DNA of 64,000 nucleotides from an uncultured Bacilli bacterium (GCA_947591215.1 CANQCZ010000005.1:1630-65629), one strand, 5' to 3'. Positions 1,073-2,049 are shown, counted from the first letter of the stretch. Translations and numbers: made by a program. The notes: generated by a model not told the origin, from the sequence alone.

Positions 1073-2049
1073 ATGGATAATGAAACAATTTTGTTCGATC
1101 GTATAGAAATGATTAAAACCTTAGCAAGTTTGTACGATTTAGAAACAACAACATATATCTCTTTCAGTGGCGGTAAAGACAGTTGTGTTTTGTCGAAATT
1201 AGTCGATTTAGCACTTCCCGATAATAAAATTCCACGAGTTTATAAAAACACGGGGATTGAATATCCACAAGTGGTAAACTTCGTCCGTTCATTACAAGAG
1301 AATGACGACAGAATTATTATTTTACCACCTAAAAAACCAATCAAAAACACATTAGAAATTGTAGGCTACCCATTTAAATCAAAACGACATGCAAACATAG
1401 TTGCAACTTATCAAAATAATGTGGAAAAATGCGAATTTTATAAGAACTTAATTAATGAAAATTTAGATTTATTAAACGATTTCGAGTTTATTCATAATCT
1501 TCCTATAGGCGTTAAAACTTTTGTTAAGTATTATTACGGCGTCCGAGAGAGAGAGAGAGAGAGAGAGAGCTGTACCGCTACGAAAATTGTCCTAAATGTC
1601 TTAAATATCAGTTTACCCCTGACTTCAAGATTAAGTTAAGTGATAAATGCTGTGCGGAATTTAAAAAGACGTCGTTTTATGAGTACGAAGATACGTCGAA
1701 AAGGATTAACTGCTTTACAGGACAAAGAATAGCGGAGGGTGGAAATCGAGACAAACTAAAATGTATAAGTTCTAGTCACAATGGAAAACACTTTAACATA
1801 TTGGCTCCTATCAATAATGAATGGATAGAATGGTTCATTAAAAAATATGAAATTAAATTATGTGAATTATATTATCCACCATTTAATTTTAAAAGAACGG
1901 GGTGCATGGGGTGTCCATTTAACTTAGATCTAAACCGTGATATACAAACCTTAAAGAAGTATGCTCCTGCAACATATAATCAGTGCTACTACTTATGGCA
2001 ACCTGTATATGATGAGTATTTAAAACTCAATTATCGATTAAAGGAATAA
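1073..2049 (+). pseudogene. PAPS-reductase-family (CysH/DndC-like) gene disrupted by a frame offset at a (GA)12 tract. The N-terminal fragment is 1073-1639 and the C-terminal fragment runs from about 1567 to 2049.
   Basis: The N-terminal ORF has the SGGKDS P-loop of the PAPS reductase/ATP-PPase fold and ends ...VRERERERE. From the GA tract, another frame reads ELYRYENCPKCLKYQF...CFTGQRIAEGGNRDKL... continuous with ORF 1801-2049, which contains GCMGCP (CxxC). Removing one GA unit or adding two would fuse both parts into a single ORF of about 325 aa. Confidence 0.6.
1545..1568. repeat. (GA)12 dinucleotide simple sequence repeat inside the PAPS-reductase-family gene
   Basis: Direct reading of gagagagagagagagagagagaga at 1545-1568. 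Confidence 0.95.

Follow-up and report, generated by a model that had tools for sequence, protein, structure and literature searches.

Whether a gene split by a simple-sequence repeat is broken, or has been caught in one state of a switch, is the question raised by a prophage locus in a 64,000-nucleotide (nt) stretch of DNA from an uncultured Bacilli bacterium (GCA_947591215.1 CANQCZ010000005.1:1630-65629), which is referred to below, at its full length, as the window. Here a perfect (GA)12G tract at positions 1545-1569 (25 nt, 100% pure; GAGAG...GAG) interrupts a gene of the 3′-phosphoadenosine 5′-phosphosulfate (PAPS) reductase family. An earlier note on this DNA had placed a (GA)12 tract inside the gene and proposed it as a candidate phase-variable switch; the tract is as described, and comparison with relatives supports the proposal through a length variant of the same phage, recurrent tracts in the gene family, and OFF (frameshifted) alleles that are free of other lesions. 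Judging from these sequence comparisons, we consider it probable that (GA)12 is a hypermutable slipped-strand ON/OFF switch in an accessory prophage gene.

Reading frames across the tract

The tract is the only run of at least five dinucleotide units in the window, and the word (GA)6, for which dinucleotide-preserving shuffles gave an expectation of 0.02, reached its observed count in 0 of 100 shuffles. The frames on either side of it run as the earlier note had read them. The upstream open reading frame (ORF; ...SFSGGKDS...YYYGVRERERERESCTATKIVLNVLNISLPLTSRLS*), whose 188-amino-acid (aa) product is already on record as an exact protein (P0124), translates across the tract as ...YYYGVRERERERE and then continues for 23 out-of-frame residues to a stop codon 68-70 nt past the tract. 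The shifted frame leads from the tract into the ELYRYENCPKC...GCMGCP sequence, and reads (RE)nLYRYENCPKCLKYQF...SDKCC...AEGG...RTGCMGCP... up to its own stop at 2047-2049. Since a GA repeat encodes alternating Arg and Glu in all three frames, the frame in which translation leaves the tract is all that matters, and since 2 is not a multiple of 3, every GA step moves the gene between frames. When rebuilt with different numbers of units, the gene is ON at 8, 11 and 14, giving proteins of 322, 324 and 326 aa, and OFF at every other number (products of 170-190 aa), with (GA)12 giving 188 aa; the expectation that (GA)11 or (GA)14 would restore a protein of about 325 aa was therefore correct, and holds for (GA)8 as well. 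No ATG, GTG or TTG start codon is present in the downstream frame before 1801, so the C-terminal half cannot be made alone. A split gene that supplies two working subunits is ruled out, as the first possible start, at 1801, lies past the CC motif.

By fold and by profile, the protein belongs to the PAPS-reductase / PP-loop family. The (GA)11 reconstruction scored 49.1 bits against PF01507 (cut-off 22.5), aligned over 98-100% of its length to the best 120 of 2,964 homologues, and matched phrog_424 (8.7e-26) as one stretch, residues 9-308, which spans the tract. The SGGKDS motif of the PP-loop occupies residues 32-37. When the (GA)11 protein was modelled with AlphaFold2 (predicted local distance difference test score, pLDDT, of 94.2), the best Foldseek matches of the model in the PDB were to CysH and adenosine 5′-phosphosulfate (APS) reductases (E = 5e-7, probability 1.00, 12-16% identity). 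In the model, the RE run forms a beta-hairpin at the surface (strands 157-160 and 165-168) that ends a helical insertion, and shorter family members do not have that insertion; with the run in such a position, unit changes that keep the frame would probably be tolerated.

Tract length and frameshifts in the same phage and across the family

A different tract length is present in DNA that is otherwise identical to this locus. An independent metagenomic contig of 1,173 bp (L294; ENA ERZ27249440) corresponds to window positions 560-1736 with 0 mismatches, but has (GA)10G in place of (GA)12G. The (GA)10 allele is OFF in the third frame (...RERERERAVPLRKLS*), as predicted from its unit number, and its 172-aa product (P0125) falls into one 90% cluster with the 188-aa product of the window. 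The two known alleles, (GA)10 and (GA)12, thus bracket the ON length of 11, and zero substitutions in the flanks beside a change in tract length are the signature of a site that mutates far faster than its surroundings. An exact look-up of the 81-aa protein encoded upstream found four contigs, among which the tract is spanned by L294 alone; L295, L296 and L297 end before it, L296 by 14 nt. The earlier note had held that a uniform tract together with further inactivating mutations would speak for a fixed pseudogene. What was found is (GA)10 in a 100%-identical contig from another sample, and a downstream half in the window that is free of stops and keeps every invariant residue of the family.

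Relatives were compared for tract length, a check that the earlier note had suggested, and the comparison revealed recurring tracts and frequent OFF alleles without a second lesion. We fetched 292 loci from viral, genome and metagenome collections and located frame changes using tblastn. The first scans ranked loci by the full protein (alignment A1), which under-sampled split genes; further loci were therefore drawn from repeat scans that used the N-terminal half alone (A2), so that intact genes would have no advantage. Within the family gene, three sites have pure GA tracts (12-21 nt), namely site A at ~+210 nt ('FVERERERD'), site B at ~+460 nt, which is the site of the window tract, and site C at ~+670 nt ('WLxERERE'), and homologues that are only 48-59% identical show 'YYGVRERERE' at the same alignment position. 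In a tally of 167 complete unique family genes, 10 of the 30 with a GA tract of at least 12 nt were frameshifted, all exactly at the tract, as against 9 of the 133 without a GA tract (Fisher p = 3e-4), and all four genes with tracts of 8-11 nt were intact; within the N-terminally ranked subset, five of ten tract-bearing genes were frameshifted. These ON and OFF counts stem from lists that were capped or ranked, and so are not frequencies. Shifts at GA tracts go in both directions (shift 1 in L117, L118, L134 and L135; shift 2 in the window, L119 and L120). Two sets of near-identical loci, L002 (21 nt) with L118 (net 2 nt fewer; ~95% identity) and L062/L225 (20 nt) with L288 (18 nt), each join an intact gene to a frameshifted one whose tract differs by one unit.

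Apart from the tract, the OFF alleles appear undamaged. Downstream of the tract in ten OFF loci, 1,718 codons contain 0 stops and no second frameshift, compared to 0.077 stops per codon when these segments are read in the two remaining frames. Between the window gene and L293, its nearest relative with known context, the ratio of nonsynonymous to synonymous divergence (dN/dS) is 0.12 in the N-terminal half and 0.06 in the C-terminal half, with dS saturated. A protein search using the N-terminal 163 residues recovered at least 85 clusters (90% identity) of truncated fragments, 160-210 aa long and ending 0-40 aa past 'GVRERERE'; the tails of these OFF fragments represent both wrong frames (ELY..YP*, VVSL*), and many of the fragments come from contigs of 10-78 kb. 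Among the best 120 full-length relatives, 42 have a run at site B, nearly all of them exactly RERERE, and the RE runs of the OFF fragments are 4-8 residues long, which fits what would be expected of alleles a step or two away from a preferred ON length. Past the tract, relatives read either 'SCT...' or 'ELY...', two translations of one nucleotide sequence in different frames, which shows that earlier frameshifts were compensated further downstream. In the clade closest to the window, L302 has the same order of primase, PAPS-family gene and 520-aa methyltransferase and is split at a 20-nt tract, and L303 is likewise split, at a tract of 11 nt. Two relatives in this clade, L293 and L299, are ON; the first has no tract and the second an interrupted one (CGA GAG AAA GAG AAA GAG AAA GAA, reading REKEKEKE), which would effectively be a natural locked-ON version.

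The repeat is a feature of the DNA and not of the peptide alone. All 28 alternating Arg/Glu runs of at least 5 aa are GA-encoded (22 fully pure and 6 deviating in an end codon only), and in the same genes AGA accounts for 49% of Arg codons and GAG for 29% of Glu codons. A pure RERERE would arise under independent codon choice with a probability of ~0.003, and conservation of RERERE as a peptide alone is ruled out by this codon analysis. The gene contains 0.157 tracts of at least 12 nt per kb, ~17x the density of its flanks (0.009 per kb over 948 kb of phage DNA), and at least seven of the nine GA tracts in the flanks lie inside DNA methyltransferase genes beside the PAPS gene (types C5 PF00145, phrog_67, phrog_757 and phrog_116). 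The low flank density and the location in methyltransferases rule out GA tracts as a general trait of AT-rich phages. Methyltransferase tracts of 14-20 nt were seen in L012 (2526), L074 (2554), L079 (111/621), L116 (1636), L120 (2400) and L262 (2897); they are in frame in the ORFs that were read, with L116 and L079, where the methyltransferase looks fragmented, as possible exceptions.

Repeats of other kinds also coincide with frameshifts in the family. Among the nine frameshifted genes that have no GA tract, five are shifted at another repeat, either (AT)n, poly-A, or poly-G within the conserved EGG motif. The poly-G run at the invariant Glu-Gly-Gly motif (GAGGGGGG...), at ~+556 nt, is a second slippage site of the family, with frameshifts exactly at that motif in four metagenomic loci (L140, L145, L164 and L130; G6 to G9). 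The cultured [Clostridium] innocuum phage Maintenon (L298, ON453900.1 16390-17390) has its PAPS reductase annotated as two coding sequences, and one added G at 'gtgaggggcaag' would restore GEGARQ...C. Runs of (AT)5-6 within family genes, which coincide with frameshifts in L251 (~3165) and L282 (~2851), represent a third repeat type, found at positions of its own. In one further family member (L169), a ~266-nt insertion at 3232-3498, which could be intron-like or mobile, breaks the conserved PFNFKRTG|C motif.

A switch weighed against other explanations

Several observations weigh against a switch. Both known alleles of this phage are OFF, no ON allele of it was found in databases, and all four pure-tract alleles in the close clade of the window are OFF. 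The coverage of L294 is only ~2.4x, and the family counts carry the limit of ranked lists noted above. In addition, the protein failed the full-length models for CysH, DndC, SspD and BrxP alike, so that a DNA-modification or anti-defence benefit is one that we infer.

The alternative that survives best is a non-adaptive mutational hot spot, in which an AGAGAG (Arg-Glu) seed expanded and inactivated a dispensable gene, leaving a young pseudogene with neutral drift in tract length. Such a history would account for the uniformly OFF state of this phage and of the pure-tract alleles in its clade, for closest ON relatives that have no pure tract, and for the very large number of OFF clusters, which is close to the number expected if tract length drifted neutrally through the three frames. 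It sits poorly with pure tracts that occur at three sites and are enriched ~17-fold in the gene and adjacent methyltransferases, and not phage-wide, and with the lack of any secondary lesion in the 1,718 codons past the ten OFF tracts. The ON alleles, moreover, are held tightly at exactly RERERE, pointing to recurrent selection on the ON state. Taking both sides together, we regard a hot spot of this kind as unlikely.

Less likely again, and in our view distinctly improbable, is recoding, by which RNA polymerase realignment or ribosomal slippage would yield some full-length protein through a required -1 shift, leaving the gene dimmed. With all three frames encoding (RE)n, a slip inside the tract would be silent in the protein, OFF alleles are common yet otherwise lesion-free, and a 9-bp RNA-DNA hybrid could conceivably re-pair 2 nt off register in a 25-nt GA run. 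Against it, to our knowledge, elongation slippage has been established for A/T homopolymers and not for GA repeats. A programmed -1 ribosomal frameshift can be rejected, as the X XXY YYZ heptamer is absent from the site, no stable RNA structure was found downstream (146 nt, z = 0.10), and relatives require shifts in both directions, unlike a directional programmed signal. We give very little credence to a sequencing or assembly artefact that conceals a true (GA)11 and an intact gene: repeats do assemble less readily than unique sequence, L294 is thinly covered, L296 stops just short of the tract, and two truncated proteins of other family members (P0211 and P0216) end inside the RE run, but two independent assemblies gave two different OFF lengths and hence no single systematic error, GA-tract frameshifts recur over many projects and assemblers, including on contigs of 20-78 kb, dinucleotide tracts of 20-25 nt are well inside read length, and the homopolymer artefact that the earlier note had mentioned does not directly apply to a dinucleotide repeat.

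A slipped-strand switch could operate as follows. Mispairing during replication of the host or phage DNA would add or remove GA units, and the gene would toggle between one ON frame ((GA)8, 11, 14) and two OFF frames, with the window representing an OFF allele one unit above ON. In the lysogen, selection probably does not act on the gene, and tract length would drift; upon induction or infection, the progeny would differ in whether they make the enzyme, and selection on ON variants would keep the remainder of the gene intact. Switching within a population would presumably be reversible and frequent, and may be a way of hedging bets on a DNA-modification or anti-defence function that pays off or not according to the defence systems of the host; the biochemical activity of the enzyme is likewise presumptive. 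A broader version, which we put forward tentatively and with clearly less confidence than the switch itself, is that temperate phages of the gut and rumen practise bet-hedging across the family by (GA)n at three or more sites in the PAPS gene and in neighbouring methyltransferases, such that bursts and lysogens would mix ON functions as a phage counterpart of the phasevarion. As a more unusual sub-variant, GA slippage at the RNA level may make the switch graded and not binary.

Prophage setting, related systems and implications

As the earlier note had stated, a C5 methyltransferase gene (PF00145) lies directly downstream of the PAPS-family gene (Table 1), and the two form a conserved pair that is also found in L293 and L302. 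The small ORFs near the locus had no family match. A siphovirus-type prophage occupies the left part of the window as far as ~27 kb at least, with genes for a D5/DUF5906 primase, the PAPS-family protein, the C5 methyltransferase, a gp3-like small terminase, a large terminase, an SPP1-type portal, tail proteins and a reverse transcriptase. From ~40 kb the G+C content is higher, and genes for a pyrophosphatase, an F-type ATP synthase, ThrRS and a DnaB_2-domain protein indicate a Bacillota chromosome. Between phage and host genes lies a very AT-rich stretch (35302-39787, 25-28% G+C) with three consecutive HTH_3 (Cro/CI-type) regulators and an AAA_14/DUF4143 ATPase. Within the prophage, the small-terminase-like gene (6750-7307) is separated from the large terminase (11114-12805) by an FtsK/SpoIIIE-family ATPase (7348-8553) and a 233-aa ORF (8996-9697), both on the minus strand, followed by a serine resolvase/invertase (10291-10887). 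These three may be a module inserted into the packaging region; an A10 run is present at 7311-7320.

A megablast search of 800-3700 against 50,697 phage records returned no match, implying that there is no cultured close relative, and a protein search of the same records recovered only distant homologues, with at most 36% identity over most of the protein and one match of 41% that spans only 23% of it. No close relatives at the DNA level were found in phage, plasmid-free genome or viral collections, and the best match in the genome contig scan had 53-56% identity. Relative to L293, the PAPS-family gene has diverged far beyond its neighbours (74% amino-acid identity and dS of ~1.7, compared to 96% for the primase, 97.5% for the 81-aa ORF and 89% for the methyltransferase, with dS of 0.55-1.3), which suggests that alleles may have been exchanged at the locus by recombination. 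This prophage also contains a diversity-generating retroelement (25926-27342 and 5931-6007; Table 1), which has two variable regions; template adenines account for 11 of the 13 mismatches between the template repeat and the first of these regions, and for 14 of 17 with the second. With the GA tract and the retroelement, one prophage therefore holds two independent hypervariation devices.

Table 1 Positions of the interrupted gene, its neighbours and the retroelement, counted from the first letter of the window
Feature	Position	Strand	Details
PAPS-reductase-family gene, whole, frameshift-interrupted	1073..2049	+	PF01507, phrog_424; 324 aa with (GA)11
Upstream ORF as present, 188 aa	1073..1639	+	PP-loop SGGKDS, N-terminal half, (RE)4, 23-aa out-of-frame tail
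(GA)12G simple-sequence repeat, proposed hypermutable switch	1545..1569	+	Arg-Glu alternating in all three frames
C-terminal half in the other frame	1567..2049	+	ELYRYENCPKCLKYQF...CC...EGG...RTGCMGCP..., stop 2047-2049
C5 cytosine DNA methyltransferase, 520 aa	2055..3617	+	Intact, without a tract; PF00145 7e-57, TIGR00675
D5/DUF5906 primase-helicase, C-terminal part	20-820	+	Gene order kept in related phages
81-aa ORF	817-1062	+	Gene order kept in related phages
Template repeat	~26123-26200		
RT-18 RNA	26233-26314		Rfam RF03021, 43.3 bits
Reverse transcriptase ORF	26323-27342		PF00078
First variable region (VR1)	25926-26003		C-terminus of 531-aa BppU_N tail protein
Second variable region (VR2)	5931-6007		C-terminus of 278-aa ORF 5180-6016, ~20 kb from template

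Five invariant cysteines of the protein (C192, C193, C230, C277 and C280) make up a CC...CxxC set, a pattern that binds Fe-S clusters in APS reductases and DndC. Identity as CysH, the assimilatory PAPS/APS reductase, is rejected: PRK02090 (NCBIfam) scored 18 bits against a cut-off of 154, and the sequence does not contain ECG(L/I)H, the C-terminal catalytic motif of that enzyme. Identity as one of the sulfurtransferases DndC, SspD or BrxP is rejected as well. The PADLOC models for BrxP (7.6e-11) and SspD (1.5e-5) matched residues 10-105 and 29-95, that for DndC (0.009) had no individually passing stretch, and none matched over the full length. The protein resembles these enzymes in its weak N-terminal match (the SGGKDS domain) and its richness in cysteine (CC...CxxC), and differs from them in that the match covers only ~95 N-terminal residues and in that no dndD/E, sspB/C or brx partner genes occur among the neighbours of the locus or in related loci. 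The description of the protein as DndC-like in the earlier note thus holds for the N-terminal PP-loop domain (~105 residues) and fails beyond it. In the literature, phage PAPS reductases are treated as sulfur auxiliary metabolic genes, or alternatively viewed as DndC/SspD-like candidates for anti-defence (PMC13551039).

Slipped-strand frameshifting is in itself a known mechanism, familiar from contingency loci and phasevarions; on the comparisons made here, what is new is the gene family, the dinucleotide (Arg-Glu)n design, the several independent sites together with adjacent methyltransferases, and the setting in temperate phages of the gut and rumen. Campylobacter phages have poly-G tracts in receptor-binding genes that produce phenotypic heterogeneity; these resemble the window tract as hypermutable repeats in phage genes, but are homopolymers in tail or receptor-binding genes of lytic phages and do not belong to a modification or anti-defence module. 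Phasevarions are governed by phase-variable mod (Type III) and hsd (Type I) restriction-modification genes in Haemophilus, Neisseria and Helicobacter (PMC7383803, PMC3936762). They share with the window a perfect repeat in the coding region of a gene in a DNA-modification module, a change of units by slipped strands that converts full-length to truncated products, and tract lengths that vary between otherwise identical strains. The window gene, in contrast, is on a temperate phage and encodes a PP-loop enzyme of the PAPS-reductase family and not a methyltransferase, and its repeat, a GA tract that is read as (Arg-Glu)n whatever the frame, has appeared at three places within a single family.

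Among phages, contingency loci have been demonstrated experimentally in the virulent coliphages T2 (agt) and T4 (rIIA), at homopolymers of at least 6 nt, and the survey in that study covered homopolymers only (10.1101/2025.10.21.683753). Those loci are alike in placing a slippage-prone repeat in a phage DNA-modification gene, where frameshift variants among the progeny hedge against host defence; they differ as homopolymers of lytic T-even phages, whereas in the window a dinucleotide is repeated 12 times in the prophage of a Bacillota host, and the support comes from comparative sequence. A further parallel is a vibriophage protein in which a PAPS domain is fused to Dam, which has anti-Dnd activity and abolishes infection of the ancestral host (Piel et al., 10.1101/2021.05.05.442762). 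In both systems, an accessory region of a phage brings together a PF01507-type domain and a DNA methyltransferase, a likeness of domain content. The vibriophage protein is a 479-aa fusion with no reported repeat or phase variation, whereas in the window the genes are separate and the methyltransferase is of the C5 type and not Dam. Its benefit depends on the host, with infectivity gained on one host and lost on another, and a cost and benefit of this form is the type of trade-off suited to a stochastic switch; by analogy, it may be relevant to the window protein.

Genes for PAPS-reductase-like proteins are very common in phages, and are usually filed as sulfur auxiliary metabolic genes, although they have lately been suspected of a role in anti-defence. 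Locked-ON and locked-OFF alleles only 2 nt apart offer a ready experimental handle, and what is effectively a natural locked-ON version (REKEKEKE) exists. If repeat switches coupled to methyltransferases are real, many annotations of these genes as 'split' or 'truncated' in viromes would be phase states, and not errors or pseudogenes. Contingency loci, just reported for lytic coliphages, would then be widespread in temperate phages of the gut and rumen, where dinucleotide repeats would escape surveys limited to homopolymers, and the genes themselves would probably have the host-dependent cost and benefit that is typical of counter-defence or DNA modification, against a housekeeping metabolic role.

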